Positions 314-63,000 of a stretch of DNA of 64,000 nucleotides are shown here, one piece after another. The position numbers and the translations under genes are program-made. How positions within the stretch are numbered: the first letter of the stretch is position 1; each line of letters begins with the position of its first letter. The notes under the pieces were generated by a model. It saw nothing but the letters and a program-made list of their open reading frames with translations. It was not told the origin of the DNA and searched no databases. The DNA lies in the NCBI GenBank assembly GCA_038064595.1, contig JBBTSV010000009.1, forward strand, positions 8,769-72,768, given 5' to 3'. The DNA is from Patescibacteria group bacterium. Its GTDB lineage: Bacteria > Patescibacteriota > Minisyncoccia > Phycocordibacterales > Phycocordibacteraceae.

Positions 314-1180
314 ATGATGCGCAACGCCAAATCGCTCAAAATCCTCTGTATCGCCGGGCCGACCGCTTCGGGTAAGTCTCCGCGCGCGGTCGAGGAGGCG
401 CTTCTGCGCGAGGGCGAGATTATCTCGGTCGATTCACGCCAAGTCTACCGCGGGCTCGACATCGGGACCGAGAAGATCACTACCGAGGAGATGCGAGACG
501 TGCCGCACCACCTGATCGACATTCGTGAGGTACACGAGCCCTACTCTGCCGGCGACTTCGTCGCTGATGCGACGCGCCTAATTGAGGAAATCTCGGCGCG
601 CGGCAAGCTGCCGATCTTGGTAGGCGGAACGCACTTTTACTTTGACGCACTCCTCTTAGGGCTCCCTGCGGTAGAGGGTGATCCGATGCTGCGCGCAGAA
701 CTTGAAAAGCTCTCGACCGAGGAGCTTTTTGCGCGCGTCCGCTCCGCGGACGCGCGCAGAGCGAGCGAACTCGACCCCAAAAATCGTCGGCGCCTCATTC
801 GTGCGCTCGAAATAATCGCCTCCCTCGGCAGCGTCCCGTCCCGCGCTGTACCTACGCCCCCTTTTGGAACAAGGTTTAACCTTGTTGAATGGATCGTGAT
901 TGACCCCTCGAGAGAGGAGTTGCGGCCGCGCATTGACGCCCGGCTTGAGGCCGCGCTTGCGCGCGGCCTCGTCGACGAAGTGCGTCGTGTGCGCGAGCAG
1001 GTCGGCGACGCGCGCCTCAACGAGCTCGGGCTTGAGTATAAAATCGTAGGTGAATATCTGCGTAATGAGCGCAGTGAGGAGTCGCTCCTCCCCGCTCTCT
1101 CGAGCAAGCTCTGGCAGTATGCGCGTCGCCAGAAAGCCTGGCTGCGCAAACTCCAACTTGGGGGTCCGACCCCCAAGTAA
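314..1180 (+). CDS. miaA: tRNA dimethylallyltransferase
   Basis: ILCIAGPTASGKS P-loop, DSRQVYRGLDIGTEKIT, HHLIDI, GGTHFY: the canonical MiaA motif order. Start is taken at the internal MM just before the P-loop. The C-terminal LGGPTPK plus stop codon is encoded by the P1 palindrome. Confidence 0.85.
   Translation: MMRNAKSLKILCIAGPTASGKSPRAVEEALLREGEIISVDSRQVYRGLDIGTEKITTEEMRDVPHHLIDIREVHEPYSAGDFVADATRLIEEISARGKLPILVGGTHFYFDALLLGLPAVEGDPMLRAELEKLSTEELFARVRSADARRASELDPKNRRRLIRALEIIASLGSVPSRAVPTPPFGTRFNLVEWIVIDPSREELRPRIDARLEAALARGLVDEVRRVREQVGDARLNELGLEYKIVGEYLRNERSEESLLPALSSKLWQYARRQKAWLRKLQLGGPTPK
1157..1177. repeat. P1 palindromic element copy a (CTTGGGGGTCCGACCCCCAAG) forming the miaA 3' end and stop
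   Basis: Perfect 21-nt palindrome, identical to copies at 2350, 45442 and 57947. Confidence 0.9.
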
Positions 1181-2263: not shown

Positions 2264-2345
2264 GAAAGGACCTTTCTTGTTGTCAGGAGACATTCCCGAC
2301 CCAGACTCAAAGCTACCCTCCCTCCCCCACCCCGTCAAGAATTCC

Positions 2346-2374
2346 CCAACTTGGGGGTCCGACCCCCAAGTTGG
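2346..2374. repeat. P1 palindromic element copy b (extended 29-nt palindrome CCAACTTGGGGGTCCGACCCCCAAGTTGG), intergenic
   Basis: Perfect palindrome, immediately followed by GGGACTTACGATGTCCGTA, which supplies the stop codon of the next gene. Confidence 0.9.
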
Positions 2375-2377
2375 GAC

Positions 2378-2806
2378 TTACGATGTCCGTAGATTGCCGT
2401 TGCGGGATTTGAGGTACTTCCAGCCGATGAGGAGGAAAGAGACGACAGTCAGAACCTGCGCGGCGAGCCGCGCCGCGTCGTCTCGGTAGAATGGATAGAG
2501 ATCCATGAACCCGCCAGACGTGACGGGATTTGAGGCGATGAAAATAATCGAGAGTGGCACCGCCCACACTGCCAGCTTGAGCCAGGAGTTAAAAATGGGT
2601 CGGGAAATCAGGACCAAAATAATCGTGAGAGGTAGGAGGTAGAGAGAAAAATTATAGAATGGGTTTGTAAAGTACTGGTAGATATGGCTGACCCAATTGC
2701 TATAACATACTCCGTATGAATACATACACCAATAACTAAAGTGGGCAAATCCGACGCCAACCAGTGCGATGACGAGTGGCACACTCTGCATGAGTTTGTT
2801 TTTCAT
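2378..2806 (-). CDS. Hypothetical polytopic membrane protein (142 aa)
   Basis: Several hydrophobic helices, no recognisable family. The stop codon lies within the ACGATGTCCGTA motif. Confidence 0.5.
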   Translation of the reverse strand: MKNKLMQSVPLVIALVGVGFAHFSYWCMYSYGVCYSNWVSHIYQYFTNPFYNFSLYLLPLTIILVLISRPIFNSWLKLAVWAVPLSIIFIASNPVTSGGFMDLYPFYRDDAARLAAQVLTVVSFLLIGWKYLKSRNGNLRTS

Positions 2807-6169: not shown

Positions 6170-6208
6170 AGGAAAGGGGGTATGCCACTATGGTATCATC
6201 TCCACATC

Positions 6209-7879
6209 ATGGGTACATCAGTGGAAGATCTGAAAGAATCGTTGCAGGGGGTGATGAGGGGGGAGGTGAAGGATGACGAGGCGAGCCGTAGAGCGGCGAG
6301 CCGAGATACCTCGCTCTTTGAGCGGATGCCGTCGCTCGTGGTCTGCCCTGCTGATGCGGAGGACGTGAGCGCGGTGGTGAAGGAGGTGCGGCGCGCCCGC
6401 GAAGCGGGCGCGGAGATCTCTCTCACTGCTCGTGCCGGAGGTACCGACATGTCGGGCGGCCCACTGACTACCAGTGTGGTCCTCTCACTCACCCAACACC
6501 TGAATCACATTGCCGAGGTTGGCAACGACTACGCGATAACTGAACCGGGAGTGTATTATCGCGACTTCGAGAAAGCGACCCTCGAGAAGGGTCTCATCCT
6601 CCCCTCCTACCCCGCGAGCCGCGAGATCGCTGCAATGGGCGGTATCGTCGCCAACAACTCCGCCGGCGAGCGTACGCTTGAGTATGGACAAACCGAGCGG
6701 TATATCGAGGAGATGGATGTCGTCCTCTCTGACGGCTCGACGGCCCACTTTGGCCCCCTCACCCCTACCGAGCTCGAAGAGAAAAAGGGCCTCCAGAATC
6801 TTGAGGGGGAGATCTACCGCACTATGGACACTCTCCTTGCCGAGAACGCTGCCTTAATAGAGGAGAAACGCCCCAAGGTGTCCAAGAATGCGGCCGGTTA
6901 TGGCCTCTGGCGCGTCAAGGATCCTGCCACCGGCACTTTCAACCTCGCCCAACTTATCTGCGGCTCGCAGGGCACCCTCGCGCTCTGGACGAAGGCAAAG
7001 CTCTCGCTCGTAAAGCCTAAGGAGCATCGCGCGATGCTCGTCATCTTTCTCCATGAGATGGGGCTCCTCCCTGAAATCGTACAGCGCGTCCTCCCACACA
7101 ACCCGGAGTCATTTGAGTCCTACGACGACCACACCTTCACGCTCGCGGTGAAGTTTCTCCCCCAGGTGCTCTCTCAAATGGGCTTTATCAAGGCAGCCAA
7201 GCTCGGGATAGATTTTCTCCCTGAAGCGGCGATGGTCGCCACCGGCGGGGTGCCGAAGATGATCCTCATGGCCGAGTTCTCCGATGACACGATCGAGGCG
7301 GCTGACGCGCGCGCCGAGGCGGCGCGCGTCGCTCTCGTCGACCTCAACCTCCAGATGAAAATCGAAAAGGATGAGAAGGAGTCGGAGAAGTATTGGATCG
7401 TTCGTCGCGAGAGCTTCAACCTGCTCCGTAAAAATGTCCACGGGCTCCACACAGCACCCTTCATCGACGACTTTGTCGTCCCACCCACAAGCTACTCTGA
7501 ATTTTTGCCAAAATTGAATGCGCTTCTCGCTGAGTACTCCTCTCACTTCATCTACACCGTCGCGGGACACGTGGGTAACGGCAACTTCCATATCATCCCG
7601 CTCATGGATCTCACCAAAGAAGAGAATCGCCAGGTGATCCTCGATCTCGCGCCGCGCGTCTACGAGCTGGTGATTAAAGAAGGCGGCACCACCACCGGCG
7701 AGCACAACGACGGCATTATCCGCACCCCGTATCTCCCGATGCTCTTTGGCGAAGAGATGGTCGCGCTCTTTGAAAAGACGAAGAAAGTCTTTGACCCGCT
7801 CAACATTTTTAATCCTGGGAAAAAGGTCGGGGGCGTCTTCGAAGATATAAAAAGAGACATGCTGAAATCAGTGACTTGA
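6209..7879 (+). CDS. FAD-linked oxidase (GlcD / D-lactate dehydrogenase family)
   Basis: FAD-binding PCMH-like N-terminal domain (VVCPADAEDVSAVVKEVRRAREAGAEISLTARAGGTDMSGGP) and a C-terminal FAD-oxidase_C-like region. Start taken at the internal MGTSVEDL; the ORF extends to 6182. Confidence 0.7.
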   Translation: MGTSVEDLKESLQGVMRGEVKDDEASRRAASRDTSLFERMPSLVVCPADAEDVSAVVKEVRRAREAGAEISLTARAGGTDMSGGPLTTSVVLSLTQHLNHIAEVGNDYAITEPGVYYRDFEKATLEKGLILPSYPASREIAAMGGIVANNSAGERTLEYGQTERYIEEMDVVLSDGSTAHFGPLTPTELEEKKGLQNLEGEIYRTMDTLLAENAALIEEKRPKVSKNAAGYGLWRVKDPATGTFNLAQLICGSQGTLALWTKAKLSLVKPKEHRAMLVIFLHEMGLLPEIVQRVLPHNPESFESYDDHTFTLAVKFLPQVLSQMGFIKAAKLGIDFLPEAAMVATGGVPKMILMAEFSDDTIEAADARAEAARVALVDLNLQMKIEKDEKESEKYWIVRRESFNLLRKNVHGLHTAPFIDDFVVPPTSYSEFLPKLNALLAEYSSHFIYTVAGHVGNGNFHIIPLMDLTKEENRQVILDLAPRVYELVIKEGGTTTGEHNDGIIRTPYLPMLFGEEMVALFEKTKKVFDPLNIFNPGKKVGGVFEDIKRDMLKSVT

Positions 7880-44595: not shown

Positions 44596-44737
44596 ACTAT
44601 CACCTTTTACTGCACCCCGCGTCAACCTCTGCGCAATGGTTCACACCCCCTTGGCTCGCAAAACGCGGTGCGCTGCTGCTGGTATGATATATCATACCTT
44701 TTCCCTGATCGACTTAGGGACTTACGATGTCCCTATA
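44596..44737 (-). repeat. Promoter-containing repeated module, copy B
   Basis: Shares the -35 TTGAC, gaacca, gcgttttgcg, GGTATGATATATCATACC palindrome and GGGACTTACGATGTCC motif with copy A at 1859-1976. Confidence 0.8.
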
Positions 44738-45025: not shown

Positions 45026-45694
45026 TTATTTCTTCTCGCGCCACTTTTCAATCTCGGCGTGGTGGCCGGTTTGGAGGACTTTTGGCACGCGATAATTCTT
45101 CTTTTTGTATGAAATAGTTTCTGGCCGGGTGTAGACGGCACTTGACGCGACGCGACGCTCCTCGACGGAGGCGTCCTTACCGAGAACGCCCGGGAGCCGG
45201 CGCGTCACCGCGTCGACTACCGCGAGCGCCGGTAATTCCCCACCCGTGTAGACCGCCTCGCCCACGGCATACTCCTTCACTGGCGCGAGGGTCTTGAGGA
45301 TTTTCTTGGCGCGCTCATCGATCCCCTCGTAGCGGCCGCATACGAGGATCACGTCGCTATACTTTTTTATAAGCGCGTCAGCGTCTTTATTGGTGAACTG
45401 CTTCGCGCTCGGGCTGAACCACACAATCACCGATTTCTTCAACTTGGGGGTCCGACCCCCAAGTGATTTCTGAACGGCTTTGACTACGGGAAGCGCCATC
45501 ATCACCATCCCGGGGCCCCCGCCGTAGGGCTTTTCATCTACTTTCTTGTAGCTCCCTGCAGGGCCCGCGACGAAGTCGCGGGGGTTCTGATACTTCACCA
45601 CTATCTTCTTCTCCTTACGCGCACGTCCGATAATCGACGCGCCCAAATATGCGTCGCACGCTTCTTCAAAAAGAGTGACGAGATGGAATCTCAC
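45026..45694 (-). CDS. trmD: tRNA (guanine37-N1)-methyltransferase
   Basis: SPOUT-fold TrmD motifs (VILVCGRYEGIDERA, GGELPALAVVDAV). Contains an in-frame 21-nt P1 palindrome encoding LGGRTPK. Confidence 0.85.
   Translation of the reverse strand: MRFHLVTLFEEACDAYLGASIIGRARKEKKIVVKYQNPRDFVAGPAGSYKKVDEKPYGGGPGMVMMALPVVKAVQKSLGGRTPKLKKSVIVWFSPSAKQFTNKDADALIKKYSDVILVCGRYEGIDERAKKILKTLAPVKEYAVGEAVYTGGELPALAVVDAVTRRLPGVLGKDASVEERRVASSAVYTRPETISYKKKNYRVPKVLQTGHHAEIEKWREKK
45442..45462. repeat. P1 palindromic element copy c, in frame inside trmD
   Basis: cttgggggtccgacccccaag. Confidence 0.9.
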
Positions 45695-48603: not shown

Positions 48604-48645
48604 TATTTACTTCGCCACGGCGACGGCTTCGTCGAACTTGACGGA
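48600..48645 (-). other. Duplicated remnant of the smc 3' end (encodes LSVKFDEAVAVAK plus stop), a direct repeat of 49752-49797
   Basis: cggcgacggcttcgtcgaacttgacggagag is shared between the two sites. Both encode the identical SMC C-terminal peptide with a few silent differences. Confidence 0.7.
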
Positions 48646-48661
48646 GAGCAGTCTCCGCCCA

Positions 48662-48688
48662 AAGTTAGGACACCCAGTGTCCTAACTT
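48662..48688. repeat. REP palindrome R2 (AAGTTAGGACAC-CCA-GTGTCCTAACTT)
   Basis: Perfect palindrome; contains the RAYT stop codon. Confidence 0.9.
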
Positions 48689-49329
48689 TCTATCTCATCC
48701 GCTCTTGATGCGAGGTCTGGATTTGAAATGATTTCCTCTATAGTTTGTTCATATTCGCTTGGCATTCCGAGCACAGGAGAAATCTCATTGGACTCGATAA
48801 TTGAAGGAAAATTATGATTACCAAAATAGTCGAGATGACTACTCCACCGATAATTTTGCAAAGCAGTCAGAGCACCTGATACATCCTGTACCTCTCCTTT
48901 TCTCCATTCGGGATGCGTATAGTCAAGCGGGTTCAAATGAATATAGAACGGGATGTAAAGGAAGTGGGCGTCTCGCTCAATGAGCACTTTACGGTATTTG
49001 CCTTGCCACAAGACACCCGATCGCTCGTATCGCCTATTAAAGTATTTTGTGTACCCCATATTCATCTTGTGCATGAACATTGAAATTCCGTTTTCGACCC
49101 TTTCTGATACCAAGAGATGATAGTGATTTTTCATCAGACAGAAAGCATGAATATCAATGAGCCGCTCGCGTTTACGGTGCTCGTCCTTCCGTTCATTCAA
49201 AATATAATTCGGTACGGGATGTACGTCATTGAGAACGAATAAATCATGGGTAAACCTCACTCTGTCTTGATCGTCCATAACAACGTCTCGTTTATCGACT
49301 CCGCGCCCAATCAGATGCCAAAAGTTCAT
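48682..49329 (-). CDS. REP-associated tyrosine transposase (RAYT; IS200/IS605 TnpA-like HUH-Y1)
   Basis: HUH motif in CLMKNHYHLLV and a downstream catalytic Tyr region (YTKYFNRRY), about 215 aa. Flanked on both sides by the same palindrome, which is the classic REP-RAYT arrangement. Confidence 0.8.
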   Translation of the reverse strand: MNFWHLIGRGVDKRDVVMDDQDRVRFTHDLFVLNDVHPVPNYILNERKDEHRKRERLIDIHAFCLMKNHYHLLVSERVENGISMFMHKMNMGYTKYFNRRYERSGVLWQGKYRKVLIERDAHFLYIPFYIHLNPLDYTHPEWRKGEVQDVSGALTALQNYRWSSHLDYFGNHNFPSIIESNEISPVLGMPSEYEQTIEEIISNPDLASRADEIES

Positions 49330-49337
49330 AGCTCTAT

Positions 49338-49359
49338 GTTAGGACACCCAGTGTCCTAG
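49338..49359. repeat. REP palindrome R3
   Basis: gttaggacacccagtgtcctag, immediately upstream of the RAYT start codon. Confidence 0.85.
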
Positions 49360-49390
49360 TTTTTGTCCTATCCCCTGTTTACCATTTCTG

Positions 49391-49420
49391 AAAGTTAGGA
49401 CACTGGGTGTCCTAACTTTC
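49391..49420. repeat. REP palindrome R4 (inverted relative to R3; forms a REPIN-like doublet with a 31-nt spacer)
   Basis: aaagttaggacactgggtgtcctaactttc. Confidence 0.9.
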
Positions 49421-49422
49421 AG

Positions 49423-49749
49423 TTACTCAATGACAAAATCGAGTTGTATTTCTGGGATGCCGAGAGACTTCCCATACTCAACCGCGTCATGCCAGGTCGA
49501 TTTATTGGAGTATAAAATCTCAAACGTTTTGTCCTTAAATACTACGAGCACTTTGTCGTGGCCCGGCTCCCAAAAATGCACGTACCACTTCCCACCTTTA
49601 AGATAGGAGCCAAATTCGGCCGCGAGGTTCTCGCTTATACTTACTTTGTGCACTATCCAATCCCCACTGTGCCACGTCTTTAAAATCTGTACGTTATCGA
49701 GCACACCTCTATCGCTCAAACTATTCTCAATTACCGTGCCCGTAAGCAT
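49423..49749 (-). CDS. Hypothetical protein (108 aa) carried inside the REP/RAYT module
   Basis: ORF MLTGTVIENSLSD...KWYVHFWEPGHDKVLVVF..., no known family. Its stop abuts REP R4 and its start abuts the smc stop. Confidence 0.4.
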   Translation of the reverse strand: MLTGTVIENSLSDRGVLDNVQILKTWHSGDWIVHKVSISENLAAEFGSYLKGGKWYVHFWEPGHDKVLVVFKDKTFEILYSNKSTWHDAVEYGKSLGIPEIQLDFVIE

Positions 49750-49750
49750 G

Positions 49751-51967
49751 CTATTTCGCGACGGCGACGGCTTCGTCGAACTTGACGGAGAGAAGCTTAC
49801 TGACGCCGTCTGAACCCATGGTCACGCCGTAGAGGATACTGGTGCGGCTCATGGTCTCGCGGTTATGGGTGATTACAATCAGCTGACTCTTCTGCGCCAA
49901 GTTTTCGATCATGTCGCCGTAGCGGCGGCTGTTGGCCTCGTCGAGCGCCGCGTCGGTCTCGTCGAGGATGAGGAAGGGCGGCGGGTTGACCTGGCTCATG
50001 GCGAAGATGAGTGCGATCGAGGTGAGCGCGCGCTCACCACCTGAAAGCTGCATGAGTGAGCGCACCTTCTTCTTGGGTAGATTGACCGCAATCTCGATGC
50101 CCGCGCGCTCCTTCTTTTCTTCTGCTCCACTCTCGAGCTCGGTCTCATCGAGATCGTCAAGTACTTCCACTTCTTCAGGCTCTTCGAGCGTGAGGCGTGC
50201 GTTCCCGCCACCGAACATAAGCGCAAAATATTCACTAAAGGAGGCATTCACCTTTGCTAACCCTTCTGAGAAATGCTTAGCTAGTTCCGTATCCAAGTCG
50301 GTGATGAGTCCGCGCAGGCTCGCGGCAGACTTCGCGAGATCGTCGAGCTCACTCGCGAGGAATGTCTCGCGCTCTGACACTTCTTTATGCTCCTGACGAA
50401 TCTCTTCACCGGTACCCCCCGCTTCTTCAAGGCGGATCTTGAGGCGCTCAAGACCGCGCTGACGGTCTTCTTGTGCCTTACGCTCTTCTTCTGGCACACG
50501 CTCAAGCGGCGTGTACGAGAGCGCCGCAATGCCCGCGATCGCGAGTACCTCGCTCTTATTGCGCTCGAGCGTCTCCACAAGAAGCGTGAGTTCATATTCT
50601 CGTGCTTCATACTTGGCTATCATCCCTTCCTCATGCGCCTTTGACTGCGCTGCGTCGAGGATTCGACGGCGGATCTCACGCCCCGTTTCTTCAAGCACTA
50701 TCATCCCTTCTCTCGCGCGGGCGCGCGCAAGCTCGGCTTCTTCAAGAGCGCGAGAGGTTTGGGTAAATTTTTCTGCAAGCTCGGTCTGTTCACGTTCAAG
50801 CTTGTGTACCGCATCTTCTTCATCAGAGAGCCGCTCACTGTTTGGCGATCCATGCCGTGTAAAGAAAAAACGAATTGCACGAGTAATTGCGTCGAGTGCC
50901 GCACGTAACGACTCGACGGTCCCCCCTGCGTTCGCCGACTGCGTCTCCACTTCTGCGCGTAGCGACTCAAGCTCCTCACGCGCGACCTTGGCATATGGCT
51001 CACGCGCAACCGCTGCTGCACGACGCTTCACTTCAGCAAGTGCACCTTCAACACGACCCGTCTCCCGTGAGAGTGTGGCGCGCGCGCTTGAGAGCTCGGA
51101 GACCTCGCGCTCTGCTCTGCGCAGTACCTCAGTACGCGATATCGTCTCCTTGTCTGCCGACTTGGGGTCGGCGACCAGATCAAGCTCCGCGCTCACGGCC
51201 GCGAGTCGCTCCTTGGCATGCGCAAGCGCGACTGCTGCTGCCTGCTTCTCTCTCACTACATAGGCATCTTCGATAGAGAAGTATGTTTGTGCAAGACTCG
51301 TGAGCTCGCTCCGGAGCGCGTCTGAACGCTCAAGCTTCTTAACTTGACCTTCCAAGAAGCGCAGATGCGGTGCGAGCTCGCGACGGAGTGAGTTCACTTG
51401 GACAATGTTGTCCTCCGTCTTCTCGAGCTTACGCGTGGCCTCCTGCTTTTTAAACTCATACACTTTGAGCCCAAGCGCGTCCTCGAGCATCGCGCGGCGA
51501 TCTCGCGCTGACGCGAGCAGGATCCGGTCTGCCTCGCCTTGAGAAATAATGTGGTGACTCGTGTCGCCGATGTTCGCCCCCGCAAGCAACTCCTCGATAT
51601 CACGCAGTCGGACTCGAGAACCATTAATCGAATACTCGCTCGTCCCATCACGGAAGACAACGCGCTCGATCGCCACTTCGTCAAAATCGATTTTGAAAAT
51701 GCGTCGCGCATTATCGAAGACGACCACCACTGATGCACGGTTTGCGCGAGACGCCGTGTGGGAACCGTTGAAGATAAGATCCTCCGCGCGCTTGCCGCGC
51801 ATGCTCTTCATCGACTGCTCGCCAAGCGCAAAGCGAAATGCTTCGGCGACATTACTTTTGCCGGAACCATTCGGCCCTACGATCGCCGTAGTCGCACTCG
51901 AAAAGTCGAGTACCGTTTTCTTGGCAAAGGATTTAAACCCAACGATCTCAAGTCGCTTTAACATCAC
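49751..51967 (-). CDS. smc: SMC-like chromosome segregation ATPase, short form (738 aa)
   Basis: Walker A VGPNGSGKSN, coiled coils, ABC signature LSGGERALTSIAL, Walker B/D-loop ILDETDAALD. Confidence 0.75.
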   Translation of the reverse strand: MMLKRLEIVGFKSFAKKTVLDFSSATTAIVGPNGSGKSNVAEAFRFALGEQSMKSMRGKRAEDLIFNGSHTASRANRASVVVVFDNARRIFKIDFDEVAIERVVFRDGTSEYSINGSRVRLRDIEELLAGANIGDTSHHIISQGEADRILLASARDRRAMLEDALGLKVYEFKKQEATRKLEKTEDNIVQVNSLRRELAPHLRFLEGQVKKLERSDALRSELTSLAQTYFSIEDAYVVREKQAAAVALAHAKERLAAVSAELDLVADPKSADKETISRTEVLRRAEREVSELSSARATLSRETGRVEGALAEVKRRAAAVAREPYAKVAREELESLRAEVETQSANAGGTVESLRAALDAITRAIRFFFTRHGSPNSERLSDEEDAVHKLEREQTELAEKFTQTSRALEEAELARARAREGMIVLEETGREIRRRILDAAQSKAHEEGMIAKYEAREYELTLLVETLERNKSEVLAIAGIAALSYTPLERVPEEERKAQEDRQRGLERLKIRLEEAGGTGEEIRQEHKEVSERETFLASELDDLAKSAASLRGLITDLDTELAKHFSEGLAKVNASFSEYFALMFGGGNARLTLEEPEEVEVLDDLDETELESGAEEKKERAGIEIAVNLPKKKVRSLMQLSGGERALTSIALIFAMSQVNPPPFLILDETDAALDEANSRRYGDMIENLAQKSQLIVITHNRETMSRTSILYGVTMGSDGVSKLLSVKFDEAVAVAK

Positions 51968-54867: not shown

Positions 54868-55467
54868 CTACCCCTGCCCCTTTGGCAAATCAAGGTGGAT
54901 GAAAGTGCGGCGGTGGATAGCTGATAGGCCGTATTTTTTAAGTGCTTCATAGTGCGCCGCGGTACCATACCCCTTGTGTTGCTCAAGGCCGTAGTGCGGA
55001 TACTCTTTTGCGAGCTCCACCATGAGTCTGTCGCGCGTCACCTTGGCCACTATTGAGGCGAGCGATATGAGCGGCACGAGCTCGTCGCCGTTAATAATCG
55101 TCTCTTGCGCATATTCACTCGGCGCGCGTAGCGCGCCGTCAAGTAGCACGTGCACCAACGCGCTGTCTGGTGCAAGTGCGCTCACGCCGCGCGCGAGCGC
55201 GCGGCGCACTGCAGTCGCTATCCCCTCCTCATCTATCGCTGCGGCACTCTCGATCTCAACACGAAACTGCGCGTCGCCTTTGGCGACGCGTTCTTCAAGC
55301 ATCGTAAAAAGTGCCTCGCGTTTCTTTTCTGAAAGCTTCTTCGAGTCCCGCACGCCCGGGAACTCCTTCGCGACGTCGAAGCCTTCTGGCACCATCACGA
55401 CCCCCACGGCCACCGGCCCTGCCAAGGGGCCCCTCCCCGCCTCATCTGCCCCCAGGAGAAACTGCAT
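54868..55467 (-). CDS. rnhB: Ribonuclease HII
   Basis: GADEAGRGPLAGPV N-terminal motif with the catalytic DE. Confidence 0.85.
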   Translation of the reverse strand: MQFLLGADEAGRGPLAGPVAVGVVMVPEGFDVAKEFPGVRDSKKLSEKKREALFTMLEERVAKGDAQFRVEIESAAAIDEEGIATAVRRALARGVSALAPDSALVHVLLDGALRAPSEYAQETIINGDELVPLISLASIVAKVTRDRLMVELAKEYPHYGLEQHKGYGTAAHYEALKKYGLSAIHRRTFIHLDLPKGQG

Positions 55468-55490: not shown

Positions 55491-58004
55491 ATGGCCGCGC
55501 GATTTATTCATCTCCATACTCACAGCCACTACTCCTTCCTCCAGGCGCTGCCAAAAATTGATGAGCTCGTGGAGAAGGCGGTCGCAGAGGGGATGGACGC
55601 CCTCGCACTCACCGACGCTGGCAACATGCACGGCGCGATTGATTTCTACAAGGCCGCCACCAAGGCCGGGATTAAACCGATCCTTGGCGTCGATGCGTAC
55701 CTCGCTCCCCGCTCGCGCCACGATCGCGACCCACAGGTGGACAGCAAACGCTCGCGCATCGTGCTCCTTGCAGAAAATAATACGGGCTACACCAATCTCC
55801 TCGCGCTCGTGACACAATCGTGGACGGAGGGGTTCTATGAGCGCCCGCGCCTCGATAAAGAGCTCTTACGCGCGCATGCCACAGGCGTGATCGCGGTGAT
55901 CCCCTCATTTGCAGGCGATGTCGCCCAACACCTGCGCGCCGGCGACCCTGCCGGCGCGGCCGCTGCCATCGCAGAATATAAAACTATATTTGGTGTGGAG
56001 AATCTCTTTCTTGAGATCACGCACCACCCCAAGGTCGCTGGACACGAGGTACTGATGAAAAAAATAGTCGCGCTCGCGAGAGAAACGAAAACCCCGCTCC
56101 TCGCCCAGCACGATGTCTACTACCTCTCTCCCGACGATCGCGCGGCGACCGAGATCATGCGTCGTATCCAGCACGGCGAGCGCGGGAGAAATGAAGATGA
56201 AGACTTCTCCTTTATTAGTGACGCAACAGCGCGTTCTTTTTTCAAAGACCTCCCCGACGCGATCGAGAACTCTGGAAGAATCGCCGACCGCTGCAGCCTC
56301 TCTTTTGAGCTCGGCAAGTGGACCTTTCCTGCAGTACCCGTCTCACCCGGATTTGCCGACCATAATGAAGAGCTACGCGCCAAAGCATTTGCCGGGATCA
56401 GAGCACGCAGCCTTGAGGAGACGAAGGAGGTCGTCGACCGCATCGAGTACGAGTTGAAAATTATTATCGACAAAGGGTTCGCGGTGTACTACCTGATCGT
56501 CGCCGACCTCCTCGGCTTTGCGCGCCGCTCCGGTATTCTCACTACCACGCGAGGCTCCGCCGCAGGGAGCCTTGTCGCCTATCTCATTGGTGTGACCAAC
56601 GTGAACCCGCTTTTCTATAAACTCCCTTTTGAACGCTTCCTCAACCCCGAGCGCCCCAAGGCGCCAGACATCGACATGGACATAGCCGACAATCGTCGTG
56701 ACGAGATGATCGCCTATACCAAGCAGAAGTACGGCGAGGATCACGTCGCTCAGATCGGCACCTTCGGCACTATGATGGCGCGTGCCGCGGTGCGCGATGT
56801 CTCACGGGCGCTCGGTCACGCGTACGCGACCGGTGACCGGATCGCTAAACTCATCCCGATGGGCTCACAGGGATTCCCGATGACCATTGATCACGCTCTC
56901 GATCTTGAACCAGATTTGAAAGTGCTCTACGACGAAGACGACGACGCGCACGAGATTCTTGACCTCGCGAAACGTATTGAGGGGTGTGTACGTCACGTCG
57001 GCGTCCATGCGGCCGGTGTGGTGGTCGCCCCGACCCCTCTCATTAATTGGACACCCATCCAGCCCGACCCAAAGGGCACCGGCAAGCTCATCACTCAGTA
57101 CGACATGTACTCGATCACCGACGAGTATGGCGGGGTCGGACTGCTCAAATTCGACTTCCTCGGGATTAAGAACTTGGCGATTCTCGCCGACGCTGTCTTG
57201 CGGGTGAAAGAGACTCGCGGGATCGATGTTGATATCGAAAATGTCCCCATCGACGACACCAAGACGTATGAAATGCTGGCGCGCGGCGAGACTGAGGGCA
57301 CGTTTCAGTTAAACGGCTCAGGTATGACGCGCTGGCTTAAAGAGCTTCGCCCTTCGACTATCCACGACATCAACGCCATGGTTGCGCTCTACCGACCCGG
57401 ACCGATGGAAACAATCCCTCAGTATATTGAGCGTAAACATAGCCCAAAACTCATCCGCTTCGTTGACCCACGGATGAAAGACTATCTTGATTTCTCGTAC
57501 GGCTTGCTCGTGTATCAAGATGACGTGCTCCTTACCGCGATCACTCTTGCGGGCTACTCCTGGCTTGAGGCCGACCAGCTCCGCAAAGCGATGGGCAAAA
57601 AAATTCCAAAAGTGATGCGGGCTGAAAAAGAGAAGCTCCTCAAGGGGTTTATAGAATATGGAAAGCTCACTCCTGAAAAAGCTGAGAAACTCTGGTCGCT
57701 CATCGAGCCCTTTGCTGCCTACGGCTTTAACAAGGCACACGCCGCAAGCTATGGTAAGGTCGCCTACCAGACCGCGTATATGAAGGCAAATTACCCTGTC
57801 GAATATCTCTGCGCACTTCTCACTGCCGAGTCGGGCGACACCGAACAGGTCGCTGTTTTTGTCGGGGAAGCGAAGCGTATGGGTATCTCCGTCCTCCCGC
57901 CAGACGTCAACGAGAGCGGGAGCGACTTCACGGTGGTGCAGCGTGACTTGGGGGTCGGACCCCCAAGTTGGGGGAGGCCATCCGTTTCGGTTTGTCTTCT
58001 ATAA
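55491..58004 (+). CDS. dnaE: DNA polymerase III alpha subunit, N-terminal 837 aa (PHP, palm and fingers); frame broken at a P1 palindrome
   Basis: PHP motif FIHLHTHSHYSFLQA; DnaE catalytic-region length. The ORF ends 37 nt after a P1 element and the downstream ORF continues the protein in another frame. Confidence 0.85.
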   Translation: MAARFIHLHTHSHYSFLQALPKIDELVEKAVAEGMDALALTDAGNMHGAIDFYKAATKAGIKPILGVDAYLAPRSRHDRDPQVDSKRSRIVLLAENNTGYTNLLALVTQSWTEGFYERPRLDKELLRAHATGVIAVIPSFAGDVAQHLRAGDPAGAAAAIAEYKTIFGVENLFLEITHHPKVAGHEVLMKKIVALARETKTPLLAQHDVYYLSPDDRAATEIMRRIQHGERGRNEDEDFSFISDATARSFFKDLPDAIENSGRIADRCSLSFELGKWTFPAVPVSPGFADHNEELRAKAFAGIRARSLEETKEVVDRIEYELKIIIDKGFAVYYLIVADLLGFARRSGILTTTRGSAAGSLVAYLIGVTNVNPLFYKLPFERFLNPERPKAPDIDMDIADNRRDEMIAYTKQKYGEDHVAQIGTFGTMMARAAVRDVSRALGHAYATGDRIAKLIPMGSQGFPMTIDHALDLEPDLKVLYDEDDDAHEILDLAKRIEGCVRHVGVHAAGVVVAPTPLINWTPIQPDPKGTGKLITQYDMYSITDEYGGVGLLKFDFLGIKNLAILADAVLRVKETRGIDVDIENVPIDDTKTYEMLARGETEGTFQLNGSGMTRWLKELRPSTIHDINAMVALYRPGPMETIPQYIERKHSPKLIRFVDPRMKDYLDFSYGLLVYQDDVLLTAITLAGYSWLEADQLRKAMGKKIPKVMRAEKEKLLKGFIEYGKLTPEKAEKLWSLIEPFAAYGFNKAHAASYGKVAYQTAYMKANYPVEYLCALLTAESGDTEQVAVFVGEAKRMGISVLPPDVNESGSDFTVVQRDLGVGPPSWGRPSVSVCLL
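57947..57967. repeat. P1 palindromic element copy d inside dnaE (net 20-nt insertion flanked by direct TTGGGGG repeats)
   Basis: gacTTGGGGGtcggacccccaagTTGGGGGaggcc. Confidence 0.9.
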
Positions 58005-58699
58005 AAAATTTCGGCGAGGGGATCTCGGAAGCGATTATCGCCGAGCGTAAAGCGCACGGCTCCTACGCCTCGCTCTCCGACTTTCTCGCGCGTGTGGGCT
58101 CCAAAAATTTAAATCGTAAATCGCTCGAATCACTGATTAGGTGTGGTGCGCTCGACTCTCTCACCACCGCCACCCACAAACGCGGAACGCTTCTTGAGAA
58201 CATTGAGACCTTGCTTTCCTTCCATCGCGAGGCGACTGCGATCGCTCCTCAAGATTCGCTCTTCGGCACACTCATGGCACCACCACCACTCACGCTCCCC
58301 GAGGGTGCTGCGACGTCACTCACCGACAAACTTATGTGGGAGAAGGAACTCCTCGGGATCTACGTGAGCGGGCATCCGCTCGACGCACACGCGGCTCTCA
58401 CCCAGAAAGCAGTCCTCTCTATAGCAAAGATTAAAGAAGAAATGCAGCCGGGACTCCTCCTGATTCTCCCGGTCCTCCTCACCACCGTGCGCAGTATCCT
58501 CACCAAGAGCGGAGAGAAGATGGTCTTTCTCACGGTTGAAGATAAGAGTGGGTCCATTGAGGCGGTCGTCTTCCCGAGGCTCCTGAAGGAACATGCGCGC
58601 ATTCTCACCCCGGGCGCGTGCCTCCTGATTAAAGGCAAGGTCTCGGTGCGCAACGGCGAGCCCTCGCTCGCTATCGAGGAGCTGAAGCTGCTTTCCTAG
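57968..58699 (+). CDS. dnaE: DNA polymerase III alpha subunit, C-terminal part (HhH, OB region), in a different frame from the N-terminal part
   Basis: Begins LGEAIRFGLSSIKNFGEGISEAII, the conserved DnaE IRFGL.AIK.(V/F)G segment that normally follows ...DFTVV... Confidence 0.8.
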   Translation: MGEAIRFGLSSIKNFGEGISEAIIAERKAHGSYASLSDFLARVGSKNLNRKSLESLIRCGALDSLTTATHKRGTLLENIETLLSFHREATAIAPQDSLFGTLMAPPPLTLPEGAATSLTDKLMWEKELLGIYVSGHPLDAHAALTQKAVLSIAKIKEEMQPGLLLILPVLLTTVRSILTKSGEKMVFLTVEDKSGSIEAVVFPRLLKEHARILTPGACLLIKGKVSVRNGEPSLAIEELKLLS

Positions 58700-58718: not shown

Positions 58719-59960
58719 ATGGATACCCCTGCCCCCAAAGAGAATGATCACAAAAAGCTCGGCCGCGAGCTCGACCTCTTCGCCTTCTCTGACGCGGTGG
58801 GCAAAGGACTCCCCCTCTTCACCCCCAAAGGTTCGGTGATCCGCCGTGAACTCGAGCGCTTTATCGTTGACGAAGAGATCCGCCGCGGTTACCTACATGT
58901 TTACACCCCTGATATTGCCAAGATCGATTTGTATAAAAAGAGTGGACACTACCCACACTACAAGGACTCTATGTATGCACCGATAGAGATCGACGACGAA
59001 CAATTCATGCTTCGCCCGATGACCTGCCCGCATCACTTTGAACTCTACCTTCGTAAACCAGTGAGCTACCGAGAGTTGCCGATGCGCATCGCCGAGCTCG
59101 CCCAACTCTATCGCTATGAACAGTCCGGTGAGCTTATGGGGCTCCAGAGAGTCCGCACCTTCTGCCTCGCTGATGCTCACATCATATGTGCAAACGACGA
59201 GCAGGCCGTGCAAGAAGTGGCCGGAGCGCTCGACCTCATCGAATACGTCGCCAGTGTGTTTGGTCTCGCCTACGGTACTGATTATCGTTATCGACTCTCA
59301 CTCGGGGATCGTACGAATACAGAAAAATATGTAAAAAATGACGCGGCGTGGGAAAAGAGTGAAGATCTTCTGCGTAAACTTCTCGTGCAACGTGGCAAAG
59401 ATTTTATCGAAGCAAAAGATGAGGCAGCGTTCTATGGTCCAAAGATTGATATCCAAATGAAGAATGTGAACGGCAAAGAGGATACTGCCTTCACAGTCCA
59501 ATATGACTTTCATTTCCCTGTTCAATTTGATCTCACCTATATGGGTGAAGATGGCGAGAAACACCGCGCCGTCGTCGTTCACCGTTCTTCAATTGGTGCT
59601 ATCGAACGTATCATGGCCTTCTTGATTGAGAAATATGCCGGTGCCTTCCCGCTCTGGCTCTCGCCGGTGCAGGTGAAGGTCCTCTCCATATCTGAAAAGC
59701 ATGCGGCGTATGCAAGGCAGGTGGTGGACGCGCTTAAGGGCGCGCGTATCCGCGCAGAACTCGACAACTCGAACGAGTCACTCGGAAAGAAGATCCGCAG
59801 CGGCAAAGAGGAGAAAGTTCCCTACCTCCTCGTCGTGGGCGATAAAGAAGCGGATACTCAAACAGTGTCCGTCGAAAGTCGTGACCACGGCAAGCTCGAG
59901 AGCTCTGCGATCGCCGCCTTCATCGCACGCGCGTCTGAAGAGATTACGCGCCGAGCGTAA
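58719..59960 (+). CDS. thrS: Threonine--tRNA ligase, short form (catalytic plus anticodon-binding domains only)
   Basis: Class II motifs (FMLRPMTCPHHFELY, RVRTFCLADAHIIC, GAIERIMAFLIEKY). Lacks the N-terminal TGS/editing domains. Confidence 0.85.
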   Translation: MDTPAPKENDHKKLGRELDLFAFSDAVGKGLPLFTPKGSVIRRELERFIVDEEIRRGYLHVYTPDIAKIDLYKKSGHYPHYKDSMYAPIEIDDEQFMLRPMTCPHHFELYLRKPVSYRELPMRIAELAQLYRYEQSGELMGLQRVRTFCLADAHIICANDEQAVQEVAGALDLIEYVASVFGLAYGTDYRYRLSLGDRTNTEKYVKNDAAWEKSEDLLRKLLVQRGKDFIEAKDEAAFYGPKIDIQMKNVNGKEDTAFTVQYDFHFPVQFDLTYMGEDGEKHRAVVVHRSSIGAIERIMAFLIEKYAGAFPLWLSPVQVKVLSISEKHAAYARQVVDALKGARIRAELDNSNESLGKKIRSGKEEKVPYLLVVGDKEADTQTVSVESRDHGKLESSAIAAFIARASEEITRRA

Positions 59961-60000: not shown

Positions 60001-63000
60001 TTAGGCTCCGAGGACGGCGAGGGCGCGGGCGAGGGCGAGCTTCGCACCGGTCACGCCCGTTGAATAACTTGAGTCAATCGCATTACTCAAAGAAGAGATA
60101 AGCTTCTCCAGGGTCGGAGTGTCGAGGCGAGCTGTGAGCCGCGCAATGTCGGGCGCACAGGGCGTGCCGTCAACACGCGCGCGGTACGCGTCATCGAGGA
60201 GACATGCGGTGGCCGAGAGAAGCTCTTCTGCAGCTCCTCCTCCCCGTACTTCTTGACGCAGCCCCGCGAAGACCGCCGTGCGATCACCCTCAATAAGCGC
60301 AGCGACAAAGCCGCGCACTGATGCCGGGGCCGCACTCTCTGGTACCAACGCTACTGCTGGGGTCTCCGCAACAACCGGCTCTACGTTCTCGTAGATCGGC
60401 TCTACATTTTCATATATTGGCTCAACATTCTGGTGTTCCTTCGCCGCCGCCGCGCTCGCATGACGACGAGAGAGACCTTTCACAATATCGTCGATCGAAA
60501 GCGATCCTCCTTCAGCAAACGACTTAAAGCCGTCATAGGTCGAGTAGGTACGAGGTGCGTCTGACGCGGGTGGAGGTGTGTGTTGAGGTTGAGGCGTTGG
60601 AGCCGGCGAAGCAGAGGCGGCAAGAGCCACGGTAGGAGCTGACTCAGATGAATTAAGAACGGTGTGAATCCGAGCACCAAACATGCGGAATTGGCGATTC
60701 GTAAAGGGTACTGCCCGGAAGAGAATAAGATAGGCAACCGCAAGCGCCCACATGATAAGCGCTAGCCAATAGAGCGTCGTTCCGAGGGGTCCGAGAGAGA
60801 GACCAGTCTGTGGAATCTGCGCGAGGTAGAGGTACGCAAGCGACTGTGCTTGTGGAAATACTGCAAGACTCACTGTGGGTGGCGGCGCACTGCCACCGCC
60901 ACCGCCACTAGGCGGCGGTTGCCCACAGTTTCCGCTACAACCACCGCCGCCACCCGACGAGTCAACAATGAGTGCTGTCGAACAGGTGACGGTTTGCCCG
61001 TTCGTCCCTGTGAACGTGCCCACATAGGTGTACGTCTGTGCGTTGGTCGGCGAAACTCTTGTCGAACTCGGGATAGTGGTGGTCGCGCCGATACCGTTAT
61101 CTATCGTTACACTTTGGACATTAGTGCCGCCCCACGAAAGGGTCGCGCTGCCACCGGTCGTATAGCGCGTTGGCGAGAGGCTCATCGTACAGGTCGGCGC
61201 GGGCGGAGTGGTCGTCACCGTGACAGTTGCCGAGCATACTGCTGATGCACCCGAGGCGCCGGTTACCGTACCGGTATACGTTGTCGTTGTAGTCGGAGTG
61301 GTCGATGTCGCACCTGACACTATCGAGGTCACTGCACCGATCCCTTGGTTAATCGAGAAGGCAGTAGCGTTGCTGGTATTCCACGAAAGAGTCGAGGTTG
61401 CACCCTGCTGAATTGCGGCCGGGGTCGCCGTGAGGGTACAGGTCGGTGCCGGAGGAGTAACTGAGACCGTCACCGTATCCGCACACGTCACAGTACCGCC
61501 CGGACCCGTTGCGGTGCCGCTATAGATGGTGGTCGCGGTTGGTGTGACCGAGCGAGAACCGCCCGCAAGAGGAGTCACTGATCCCACACCACGATCGATA
61601 GTGAATGAGGTGGTGTTGGTGGTGGTCCACGCGAGACTGGAGGCAGTGCCTTCGACAATCGTCTTGGGAGACGCGGTGAGGGTGCAGGTGGGGGCGGGGT
61701 GGTCAGTAACGGCCACGGTGTCAGCACAGGTATTGGTCAACCCATTTGCTCCGGTCACGGTGCCGGTGTACGTGGTCGTCACGCTCGGTGAGACCGAGCG
61801 GGAACCGCCAACAACGGGGGTCACAGAACCAATCCCCTGGCTGAGGGAGATGGATGTCGCATTGGTCGTCGTCCATGCAAGTGAAGAAGCTGCGCCGTTG
61901 AGTATGGATGCGGGAGACGCCGTGAGGGTACAGCTCGGGACCGGCACTGCCGTCACCGTCACGGTGGCGGTACATGGTGTGGAACCTCCCGGACCCGTTG
62001 CGGTGCCGCTATAGATGGTCGTCGTTGAGGGTGAGACCGAACGAGAGCCGGCAGCGACTGGCGTCACCGAACCAACGGCGTGATCAATGACAAATGAGGT
62101 GGCGTTGGTGGTAGTCCACTCAAGTGAAGATGCCGAACCGGTTTGAATGATGGAGGGAGATGCGGTGAGGGTGCAGGTGGGTGCGGGAGGGGGTGTCACC
62201 GTGATCGTTCTGCTGCAGGTATCTGAACCGCCTGCGCCCGTCACGGTGCCGGTGTACGTGGTCGTCACGCTCGGTGAGACCGAGCGAGAACCACCAATAA
62301 CGGGTGTCACGGAGCCAATCCCCTGATTGAGGGAGATGGATGTCGCATTTGCCGTGTCCCAGGAGAGGGTGGTTGAGGATCCGGCTTCAATGGAGAGCGC
62401 TGATGCAGTGAGTACGCACGTGGGAGGAGGAGGTGGAGGAAGTGGCGTCACCGTCACCGTATCCGCACACGTCACAGTACCGCCCGGACCCGTTGCGGTG
62501 CCGCTATAGATGGTGGTCGCGGTTGGTGTGACCGAGCGAGAACCGCCCGCAAGAGGAGTCACTGATCCCACACCACGATCGATAGTGAATGAGGTGGTGT
62601 TGGTGGTGGTCCACGCGAGACTGGAGGCAGTGCCTTCGACAATCGTCTTGGGAGACGCGGTGAGGGTGCAGGTGGGGGCGGGGTGGTCAGTAACGGCCAC
62701 GGTGTCAGCACAGGTATTGGTCAACCCATTTGCTCCGGTCACGGTGCCGGTGTACGTGGTCGTCACGCTCGGTGAGACCGAGCGGGAACCGCCAACAACG
62801 GGGGTCACAGAACCAATCCCCTGGCTGAGGGAGATGGATGTCGCATTGGTCGTCGTCCATGCAAGTGAAGAAGCTGCGCCGTTGAGTATGGATGCGGGAG
62901 ACGCCGTGAGGGTACAGCTCGGGACCGGCACTGCCGTCACCGTCACGGTGGCGGTACATGGTGTGGAACCTCCCGGACCCGTTGCGGTGCCGCTATAGAT

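Follow-up and report, generated by a model that had tools for sequence, protein, structure and literature searches.

The window, a 64,000-nucleotide stretch of contig JBBTSV010000009.1 (assembly GCA_038064595.1) from a Patescibacteria group bacterium, carries a dnaE gene that starts at position 55491 and whose reading frame breaks off at a palindrome of 23 nt (57946-57968), the remainder being read in the next frame. The first open reading frame, 55491..58004, encodes 837 amino acids and its translation ends in DFTVVQRDLGVGPPSWGRPSVSVCLL*, and the next frame is open from 57947 to 58699 and reads LGGRTPKLGEAIRFGLSSIKNFGEG... in translation. The codons across the junction are GTG CAG CGT GAC TTG GGG GTC GGA CCC CCA AGT TGG GGG AGG CCA, and the heptamer TTGGGGG occurs twice, at 57948-57954 and at 57968-57974. 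An earlier note on this DNA had described a dnaE frame that is broken at the palindrome and continues in the next frame, with a 20-nt, non-triplet gap between the two TTGGGGG repeats. Both features are present in the window as described, and deletion of the 20 nt restores the reading ...QRDLGEAIRFG.... The features of this locus, together with those of the repeat families discussed below, are collected in Table 1.

Table 1. Positions in the window of the two parts of dnaE, the palindromes and the transposase gene.
Feature	Position	Strand	Remarks
P1 copy that supplies the final codons of miaA (...KLQLGGPTPK); the TAA stop overlaps the end of the copy	1156..1178	+	Pfam IPPT
Longest P1 copy, a 31-nt palindrome with 15-nt arms, CCCAACTTGGGGGTC-C-GACCCCCAAGTTGGG	2345..2375		intergenic
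P1 copy inside trmD, in frame, encoding S-LGGRTPKL-KK	45442..45464	-	Pfam tRNA_m1G_MT
P2, second palindrome family, TTAGGACAC-NNN-GTGTCCTAA	48665, 49339, 49395		flanks the Y1 gene of the window
Y1 (HUH) transposase gene, RAYT-like	48682..49329	-	Pfam Y1_Tnp, 36.7 bits vs a cut-off of 23
dnaE 5' part: PHP, polymerase core, fingers, start of HhH; ends ...DFTVVQRDLG	55491..57953	+	ORF list, translation
Single P1 unit left, ACTTGGGGGTC-G-GACCCCCAAGT	57946..57968		perfect 11-nt arms
Junction without the 25 nt (CAACTTGGGGGTCCGACCCCCAAGT, or equivalent register), compared with all other assemblies	57968..57969		
Second TTGGGGG, the 'landing site' of the earlier note	57968..57975	+	within the extended right arm AAGTTGGG
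dnaE 3' part: remainder of HhH, QDSLF beta-clamp-type motif, OB fold	57974..58699	+	translations

We compared the window with assembled contigs from three Logan runs, two ENA assemblies and one NCBI MAG, all from the same groundwater population. Outside the dnaE site these assemblies were 100% identical to the window, and at the site they carried 25 extra bases. The distance between two anchors was thus 125 nt in every other assembly spanning the site vs 100 nt in the window, and among the assemblies of this population that span the site the 20-nt form was seen in the window only. Elsewhere the insert is 45 nt long and in frame, and it consists of two inverted palindrome copies with a CA spacer, copy 1 being followed by CA and then by ACTTGGGGGTC-C-GACCCCCAAGT. 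A clean pair crosses the site in L009 and L071 (Logan SRR32696710) and in L073 (Logan SRR32696712, where the junction is crossed in frame), and the 125-nt distance is also found in L070 (ENA ERZ1292619) and in L007 and L069 (ERZ1292625). In L011 and L074 (SRR32696708) and in L008 and L072 (GCA_964356635.1) the contigs break at the site, yet both copies are visible. Over 7887 nt, the sole difference between L009 and the window is one 25-nt gap at the dnaE junction. An intact DnaE of 1077 amino acids was called in L009, L070 and L071, which represent two datasets (Logan SRR32696710 and ENA ERZ1292619); in these contigs the 3' part, which the window reads in the frame open from 57947, follows the 5' part without a break. 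The intact protein of L009 matches Pfam PHP, DNA_pol3_alpha, DNA_pol3_finger and HHH_6 as well as an OB fold. The dnaE frame of the window is therefore broken because 25 nt are missing at the junction, and the comparison of sequences suggests that the P1 unit left in the window is copy 1 of the inverted pair at the real locus.

The same in-frame pair is present at the same codon of dnaE in the MAG P6-10 (DLGVGPPSSLGGPTPKSGEAIRFG), a different species in which the gene has ~74% nucleotide identity. Both 23-nt units are identical between the dnaE pairs of P6-10 and of the window population and the spacer alone differs; P6-10 has AAGTCGGG where the window has its second TTGGGGG. An alignment to the Pol III alpha of Thermus aquaticus (PDB 2hpi) places the insertion site at the turn that joins DFKVV to GEEILFG. 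At this very hairpin, 22 of the 40 closest DnaE cluster representatives carry inserts, some of which are other palindrome pairs, and in homologues without an insert the basal loop reads DFTVVADGTAIRFG. Palindrome pairs were also detected with a custom script in L076-L078. The pair would lengthen DnaE by 15 residues (LGVGPPSQLGGPTPK), which lie at a beta-hairpin tip where the HhH/beta-binding domain begins.

The 19-nt core of the palindrome, which we call P1, occurs at four sites in the 64-kb window vs 0.01 expected from shuffles, and P1 is therefore a true repeat family and not a product of chance. Two of the four sites lie inside genes and one forms the last codons of a gene. The ends of P1 read ACTT...AAGT, with variable bases beyond them, and all six frames of P1 are free of stop codons. 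The trmD copy is identical in six other assemblies and the same site is occupied in P6-10; comparison of filled and empty sites showed an empty site in the trmD orthologue of L122 and a different palindrome, with GTAG...CTAC, in L121. The 31-nt copy lies just 3' of a minus-strand ORF (2378..2806) and carries the same arm extension as the second TTGGGGG of dnaE. In a FAD-oxidase gene, a P1 site is filled in P6-10 and empty in the window. At least 12 copies are present on four contigs of P6-10, and P1 was also found on further Hainich contigs of matching coverage (L087, L102). Besides the dnaE pairs of this population and of P6-10, there are P1 pairs in L042 (6068/6094) and in L089 (5699/5725). 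About 20 of 51 metagenomic copies lie within open frames of at least 200 codons, an open frame not being a proven gene. A scan of GTDB species representatives for the P1 core returned mostly single copies, in Amycolatopsis and other actinomycetes, and the window's own genome was not among the matches; no Rfam family matched the window at the gathering threshold. As a separate observation, the ATG-start version of ThrRS is found in a gene-position collection, and the 419-aa GTG-start version is not on record there.

P1 directly flanks Y1-transposase genes in L027, L080, L099 and L110, and sometimes it also lies in frame within the gene. The Y1 protein of the window is 37% identical to the product of the P1-flanked RAYT-like gene of L027. 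Both proteins score above the Pfam Y1_Tnp gathering cut-off, the Y1 sequences show NHYHLL/NHFHLI and YIHLNP/YVNLN motifs, and the best NCBIfam match is NF047646 (REP-associated tyrosine transposase), with 41 and 23.5 bits vs a cut-off of 80. A PDB sequence search with the window Y1 protein gave spurious RpoC matches only. Neither the window, whose only Y1 gene is flanked by P2, nor the few other contigs of the same genome that we examined yielded a P1-flanked RAYT. Because P1 flanks RAYT-like Y1 genes in relatives, we infer that P1 is most likely mobilised by a RAYT-like Y1 transposase, which would act on single-stranded hairpin DNA and so spread the family.

In P1, Patescibacteria (CPR) have a dispersed palindrome family of the REP/REPIN-like kind, whose copies are often in frame within genes. 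P1 resembles the REP/REPIN-RAYT systems (Nunvar 2010; Bertels & Rainey 2011, PMC3116915, PMC3337134) in being a short dispersed palindrome of ~23-31 nt, in forming, like REPINs, inverted pairs whose two copies are separated by a short spacer and which are predicted to fold into a single long hairpin, in the flanking of Y1 (HUH) genes by the same palindrome in the four contigs named above, and in having copies that adjoin or overlap stop codons, as at miaA. Unlike described REPs, P1 carries no GTAG or CGTC tag, its palindrome is perfect rather than imperfect, and a large share of its copies are in frame inside genes, whereas REPs are mainly intergenic; furthermore, the Patescibacteria Y1 proteins are only distant relatives of the curated RAYTs. 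Patescibacteria are unmentioned in the RAYT/REPIN papers of the literature searched. Rickettsia palindromic elements (RPE), reportedly described by Ogata and colleagues in 2000, are in-frame palindromic inserts in genes. Like these and like intragenic REPs, P1 copies keep the frame in dnaE and trmD, where there are homologues without the insert. In-frame intragenic REP dimers, dnaE included, are already described in other phyla: Di Nocera et al. (2013, PMC3733652) report in-frame palindromic REPs in functional genes, often as dimers and many of them in replication and repair genes, and name a REP inside dnaE of R. conorii. Compared with the 20-30 residues given there for intragenic REP dimers, a P1 pair adds 15, and RPE-1 is also longer; the occupation of the same dnaE and trmD sites by different palindromes across lineages has no counterpart in the passages of PMC3733652 consulted.

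The dnaE pair is predicted to fold into a 22-bp hairpin (-31 kcal/mol, z = -7.1), and several assemblies show signs of difficulty at this site. Clusters of substitution errors lie immediately 3' of the pair in L007, L008 and L070, Illumina adapter read-through is seen at the site in L011, and contigs end inside the pair in L008, L010, L011, L072 and L074 and in contigs 21 and 39 of P6-10. It has been previously reported that inverted repeats are a trigger of sequence-specific Illumina errors (PMC3141275). We consider it highly likely that the real genome has an intact dnaE with the in-frame 45-nt pair and that the window has lost one 25-nt unit, an artefact being the likeliest cause. The real insert would then be ACTTGGGGGTC-G-GACCCCCAAGT, CA, ACTTGGGGGTC-C-GACCCCCAAGT, a REPIN-like pair, and one 25-nt unit would have been dropped between the two GACCCCCAAGT repeats, which would shift the frame in the window. 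The loss most likely arose when the very stable hairpin passed through library preparation, sequencing or assembly; if real, it would be no more than a minor deletion allele. One point speaks against an artefact: simple de Bruijn collapse should not yield the exact junction of the window, and therefore some reads or a polishing step must support the window form. The window form could stem from a minority allele that truly carries the deletion, or from PCR that skipped the hairpin. Since exactly one 25-nt unit is absent from the window, bypass, frameshift and pseudogene are all unnecessary as explanations.

The earlier note had offered sequencing error, pseudogene and translational bypass as options for the split gene. 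The first stands as an artefact or a non-representative consensus, whereas the intact 1077-aa DnaE in ERZ1292619 and SRR32696710 argues against the other two. A real deletion allele in part of the population, formed by slippage or by excision of one REP unit, would make dnaE a null or pseudogene, or would split it into two polypeptides of 837 and ~243 amino acids, the second from a TTG start that is available at 57968. A hairpin between the direct repeats CCCCCAAGT...CCCCCAAGT is a classic slippage substrate, and the window junction does require some supporting sequence; however, the 20-nt form is absent from all other datasets compared, the window is otherwise identical to contigs with the intact form, and a look-up in the gene-position collection returned no record of the 837-aa truncated product. 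In addition, dnaE is the sole replicative polymerase gene seen in the window, and a frameshifted version of it should not reach consensus. We therefore regard such an allele as the origin of the 20-nt form to be quite improbable. Weaker still is a homopolymer miscall of 1 nt in the G5 or C5 run of an element that is truly 21 nt long and in frame, as the earlier note had also proposed. Such runs are present, but the comparison of L009 with the window and the anchor distances refute this reading, as the other assemblies differ by 25 nt and not by 1, and the G5 and C5 runs are equal in length in all clean copies; we give it practically no weight.

Recoding would take the form of a ribosomal hop from GGG 57951-57953 to GGG 57971-57973, or of a -1 slip on G5 giving DLGGRTPKLGEA, and it would predict a joined peptide ...VVQRDLGEAIRF... 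or ...DLGGRTPKLGEA.... Programmed bypass in T4 gene 60 involves a nascent-peptide signal as well as a take-off codon with a stop immediately downstream of it, and the byp elements of Magnusiomyces capitatus mitochondria are mobile palindromic inserts in coding sequence. In the window, and there only, matched codons likewise flank a GC-rich, hairpin-forming insert in an essential gene; the -1 frame is moreover open from 57947, and the LGGRTPKL peptide read there is the same as the in-frame peptide of trmD. The likeness to gene 60 seen by the earlier note thus holds for the matched TTG GGG codons and the hairpin, but the gap is not a stable feature of dnaE: it is absent from the other assemblies of the same organism and from the sister species, all of which have an ordinary in-frame 45-nt insert. 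Furthermore, unlike in gene 60, the take-off codon in the window is followed by GTC and not by a stop, and the 'landing' repeat is the element's own arm. Read from the sequences, the take-off codons correspond to the left arm of copy 1 and the landing codons to the right arm of copy 2 in its extended form (AAGTTGGG), and the TTG GGG match is intrinsic to the palindromic element. Recoding at this site is accordingly very hard to sustain, and loss of one unit as an artefact is the reading we prefer.

The dnaE and TrmD positions hold perfect palindromes in many Paceibacteria-like lineages, and different palindromes occupy these same two sites, the dnaE hairpin and the trmD loop, in different lineages. 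The 23-nt units are identical between species in which the flanking gene sequence is 20-26% diverged, and the arm variants between lineages are compensatory (GGGGG/CCCCC, GGAAG/CTTCC, GGAGG/CCTCC, GGCGG/CCGCC). Identical units in diverged genes, together with compensatory arms, could mean that the hairpin is selected as DNA or RNA in essential genes or that units are replaced in concert by a RAYT at fixed target sites, and P1-type palindromes would then be more than selfish DNA that is tolerated; such a scenario, with the 25-nt unit serving as a reversible frameshift switch of dnaE, seems to us unlikely. Homogenisation of all copies of a genome to one variant was unsupported, as dnaE of L076 is of the GGAAG type and trmD of P0126 encodes an apparent P1-type LGGRTPKL peptide, the two genes being placed on one contig from equal length only (26,859 nt).

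Neither 'pseudogene' nor 'recoding site' is an appropriate label for the split dnaE of the window. The locus illustrates how pairs of palindromic repeats damage short-read MAGs, in which they shift frames, create false stop codons and break contigs, and annotators of CPR genomes should expect such corruption wherever these pairs occur. Patescibacteria seem commonly to carry REP/REPIN-like repeats together with RAYT-like transposases, the repeats lying in frame inside essential genes, and this bears both on the tolerance of mobile DNA in very small genomes and on the origin of lineage-specific loop insertions in CPR proteins.

In the window, dnaE breaks at a junction reading GTG CAG CGT GAC TTG GGG GTC GGA CCC CCA AGT TGG GGG AGG CCA TCC ... 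TAA, in which TTGGGGG is present twice (57948 and 57968). The end of the ORF, its continuation in the next frame, the palindrome and the TTGGGGG repeats, as described in the earlier note, were all confirmed for the window. The palindrome belongs to a 23-nt family, P1, whose 19-nt core has four sites in the window compared to 0.01 expected from shuffles. An exact-protein look-up found no record of the 837-aa truncated DnaE.

Repeats and genes discussed in the text (window coordinates)
Feature	Position	Strand	Details
P1 at miaA 3' end	1158 (core site)		Forms final codons; stop codon overlaps P1 end
~90-nt repeat, two copies	1882-1971; 44646-44732		Inverted orientation, 91% identity; short-ORF or intergenic regions
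18-nt perfect palindrome GGTATGATATATCATACC	1918-1935; 44681-44698		One per ~90-nt repeat copy
P1, 31-nt version	2351 (core site)		Intergenic
P2, lone copy TTAGGACACTGGGTGTCCTAA	17522-17542		Exactly between two minus-strand ORFs
P1 in trmD	45444 (core site)		In frame, S-LGGRTPKL-KK; identical in 6 other assemblies; same site in P6-10
smc-like 3'-end duplication cgacggcgacggcttcgtcgaacttgacggagag	48612-48650; 49757-49795		
P2 palindromes TTAGGACAC-NNN-GTGTCCTAA	48665; 49339; 49395		Flank Y1 gene
Y1 gene	48682..49329	minus	Pfam Y1_Tnp above cut-off
108-aa ORF	49423..49749	minus	No Pfam match
RNase HII gene	54868..55467		Look-up query
dnaE ORF, 5' part	55491..58004		837 aa; C-terminal end DFTVVQRDLGVGPPSWGRPSVSVCLL, then stop
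dnaE continuation, next frame	open 57947 to 58699		Encodes LGGRTPKLGEAIRFGLSSIKNFGEG...
P1 in dnaE, ACTTGGGGGTC-G-GACCCCCAAGT	57946-57968 (core site 57948)		Perfect, 11-nt arms
ThrRS gene	58719..59960		Look-up query
1298-aa ORF	60001-63897		No Pfam match

Exact-protein look-up of the neighboring RNase HII, ThrRS and TrmD led us to this locus in further assemblies. The retrieved assemblies represent the window's own population, from Hainich groundwater well H41, and comprise 140-kb contigs of ENA ERZ1292625 and ERZ1292619, the NCBI MAG GCA_964356635.1, and Logan assemblies SRR32696708, SRR32696710, SRR32696712, ERR3858120 and ERR3858121. They are 100% identical to the window across kilobases; over 7887 nt, an SRR32696710 contig (L009) differs from it solely by one 25-nt gap. 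At the junction, SRR32696710 (L009, L071) and SRR32696712 (L073) read GAC TTG GGG GTC GGA CCC CCA AGT CAA CTT GGG GGT CCG ACC CCC AAG TTG GGG GAG GCC: two palindrome copies with a CA spacer between them, mutually inverted since the first has centre G and the second centre C. This 45-nt insert is in frame and encodes DLGVGPPSQLGGPTPKLGEA. In both ENA contigs the distance between anchors is 125 nt compared to 100 nt in the window, and an intact 1077-aa DnaE (PHP, polymerase, finger, HhH and OB domains) was called in ERZ1292619 (L070) and SRR32696710 (L009, L071). The 20-nt form of the insert was seen in no dataset compared except the window.

The window sequence equals the pair less one 25-nt period, between two GACCCCCAAGT repeats. 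The pair folds into a perfect 22-bp hairpin (-31 kcal/mol as single-stranded DNA; z = -7.1 against shuffles). Just 3' of it, both ENA contigs carry clusters of substitution errors, one of which creates a TAG in ERZ1292625 (L007, L069) and splits the gene call into 844 and 201 aa. Contigs of GCA_964356635.1 (L008, L072) and SRR32696708 (L011, L074) break at the pair with both copies still visible; the L011 sequence finishes with Illumina adapter, and another contig, L010, stops right at the midpoint of copy 1. Inverted repeats have been documented to set off runs of Illumina miscalls (PMC3141275), which fits these error clusters and contig ends. The 25-nt unit could have been lost when a polymerase skipped the hairpin, or when the repeats collapsed during consensus building.

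Taken together, the dnaE break in the window is almost certainly a consensus error. The earlier note had offered sequencing error in the form of a 1-nt indel, a pseudogene, or translational bypass; the error stands, with a different cause, as the other assemblies put the loss at 25 nt rather than 1 nt. With an intact DnaE called in the same population, a pseudogene is not needed, and that reading falls on the evidence of the other assemblies; the proposed search for a second intact dnaE or polC, run within the 64-kb window, found none. Nor is bypass needed: the likeness to T4 gene 60 and the yeast-mitochondrial byps is geometric only and confined to the window, whereas the non-triplet gap that defines such systems is absent from the real gene, with its 45-nt in-frame insert. 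The 20-nt form might instead be a real minority deletion allele, although we regard this as very improbable; a frameshifted dnaE is unlikely as the consensus of a living population, and this gene is the only dnaE seen. As a consensus error, the split dnaE is a warning for MAG annotation.

Scanning GTDB species representatives for the P1 core, among whose matches the window's own genome was absent, we found a relative of a different species, the MAG Patescibacteria P6-10. Its dnaE, about 74% identical to that of the window in nucleotides, carries at the same codon position GAC TTGGGGGTCGGACCCCCAAGT TC ACTTGGGGGTCCGACCCCCAAG TCG GGA GAA, which reads DLGVGPPSSLGGPTPKSGEAIRFG in frame. Both 23-nt units match those of the window population exactly, and the difference is confined to the spacer. 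This assembly also breaks at the pair: contig 21 (L028) stops and contig 39 (L039) begins there, and of these two ends one has the spacer as GTTCAC and the other as its reverse complement GTGAAC. Either part of the population has an inverted spacer, or the difference arose in assembly because the 48-nt palindrome is nearly perfect.

Alignment to PDB 2hpi placed the insert at the turn between DFKVV and GEEILFG of Thermus aquaticus Pol III alpha. Among the 40 closest DnaE cluster representatives, this turn has 6-8 residues in 18, and 22 carry 6-39 extra residues at exactly the same turn, with at least 10 insert sequence types. Three of the inserts are other palindromes at the DNA level: a pair of ACTTGGAAGTC-S-GACTTCCAAGT (L076), a pair of ACTTGGAGGCC-W-GGCCTCCAAGT (L077) and a 43-nt palindrome (L078). 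The trmD loop is similar, holding P1 in the window and P6-10, ACTTGGCGGT-GAA-ACCGCCAAGT in L120, TGTAGGACGTC-G-GACGTCCTACA of the GTAG type in L121, and an empty site in L122. Judged from these sequences, the DnaE turn appears to be an insertion hot spot, and the trmD loop likewise. At both sites, the arms differ in a compensatory manner that preserves palindromy. This may stem from replacement, from selection for a hairpin, or from insertions that recurred at permissive or targeted sites. The L076 DnaE (GCA_041642995.1) also has a second lineage-specific insert, STPTSEVGVPTESVG, at codons near 320, encoded by two short hairpins of a different repeat type (CCCCGAC...GTCGGGG and TCCCGAC...GTCGGGA).

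P1 is free of stop codons in all six frames, and encodes LGV(G/R)PPS, LGG(R/P)TPK or TWGSDPQ depending on frame and orientation. In P6-10, a FAD-linked oxidase gene carries an in-frame copy where the window orthologue (6182..7879) has an empty site, and a further P1 pair lies inside a 240-codon frame. A scan of metagenome contigs returned 51 copies at 41 loci. About 20 of the 51 fall within open frames of 200 codons or more, among them a PHP-domain pair in the dnaE of a different organism (L089) and a copy in a trmD (L101); an open frame is no proof of a gene.

A 261-aa Y1-transposase gene in P6-10 (L027) has flanking P1 copies and two in-frame copies inside, and P1 directly adjoins homologous Y1 genes in L080, L099 and L110. 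The window's Y1 protein is 37% identical to that of L027, and its best NCBIfam match is REP-associated tyrosine transposase, under the model's cut-off. P1 flanking Y1 genes in relatives, and a second palindrome family, P2, flanking the window's Y1 gene, give a REP-RAYT-like arrangement. The RAYT-like genes of L027 (2233-3018) and L099 (6703-7380), on different contigs, both hold in-frame P1 (LGGRTPKL and LGGPTPKL), positioned alike; P1 has thus entered the gene presumed to encode its own transposase. The window's Y1 gene and the 108-aa ORF occupy a 1.1-kb insert (48612-49795). Its bounds are marked by P2 palindromes and also by a stretch of about 40 nt from the 3' end of an smc-like gene, duplicated in direct orientation. 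The TTA/TAA ends of the lone P2 copy can act as a stop codon, a role described for the palindrome ends of GTAG REPs.

Elsewhere in the window, the ~90-nt repeat had no Rfam match, and no Rfam family, tRNA included, reached gathering score across 1-64000. Within the 1298-aa ORF, a 938-nt segment is perfectly duplicated in tandem (about 61512-62450 and 62450-63387), alongside older copies that are 75-77% identical; Logan contigs stop there at 61495, and ENA contigs are called very differently (394 aa). This region is probably another spot of unreliable assembly.

Rickettsia RPEs are the classic case of in-frame palindromic inserts. In-frame intragenic REPs and REP dimers have also been described, many of them in replication and repair genes and one inside Rickettsia conorii dnaE, according to Di Nocera et al. 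2013 (PMC3733652). The inverted P1 pairs fit how REPINs are defined (PMC3337134). P1 lacks a GTAG or CGTC tag and is frequently intragenic, and we therefore place it among REP/REPIN-like elements without claiming proven membership. In-frame REPs are thus already known; the RAYT/REPIN papers of the literature searched make no mention of the host phylum here, Patescibacteria. The residual value of the finding is a REP/REPIN-like family within essential genes of CPR bacteria.
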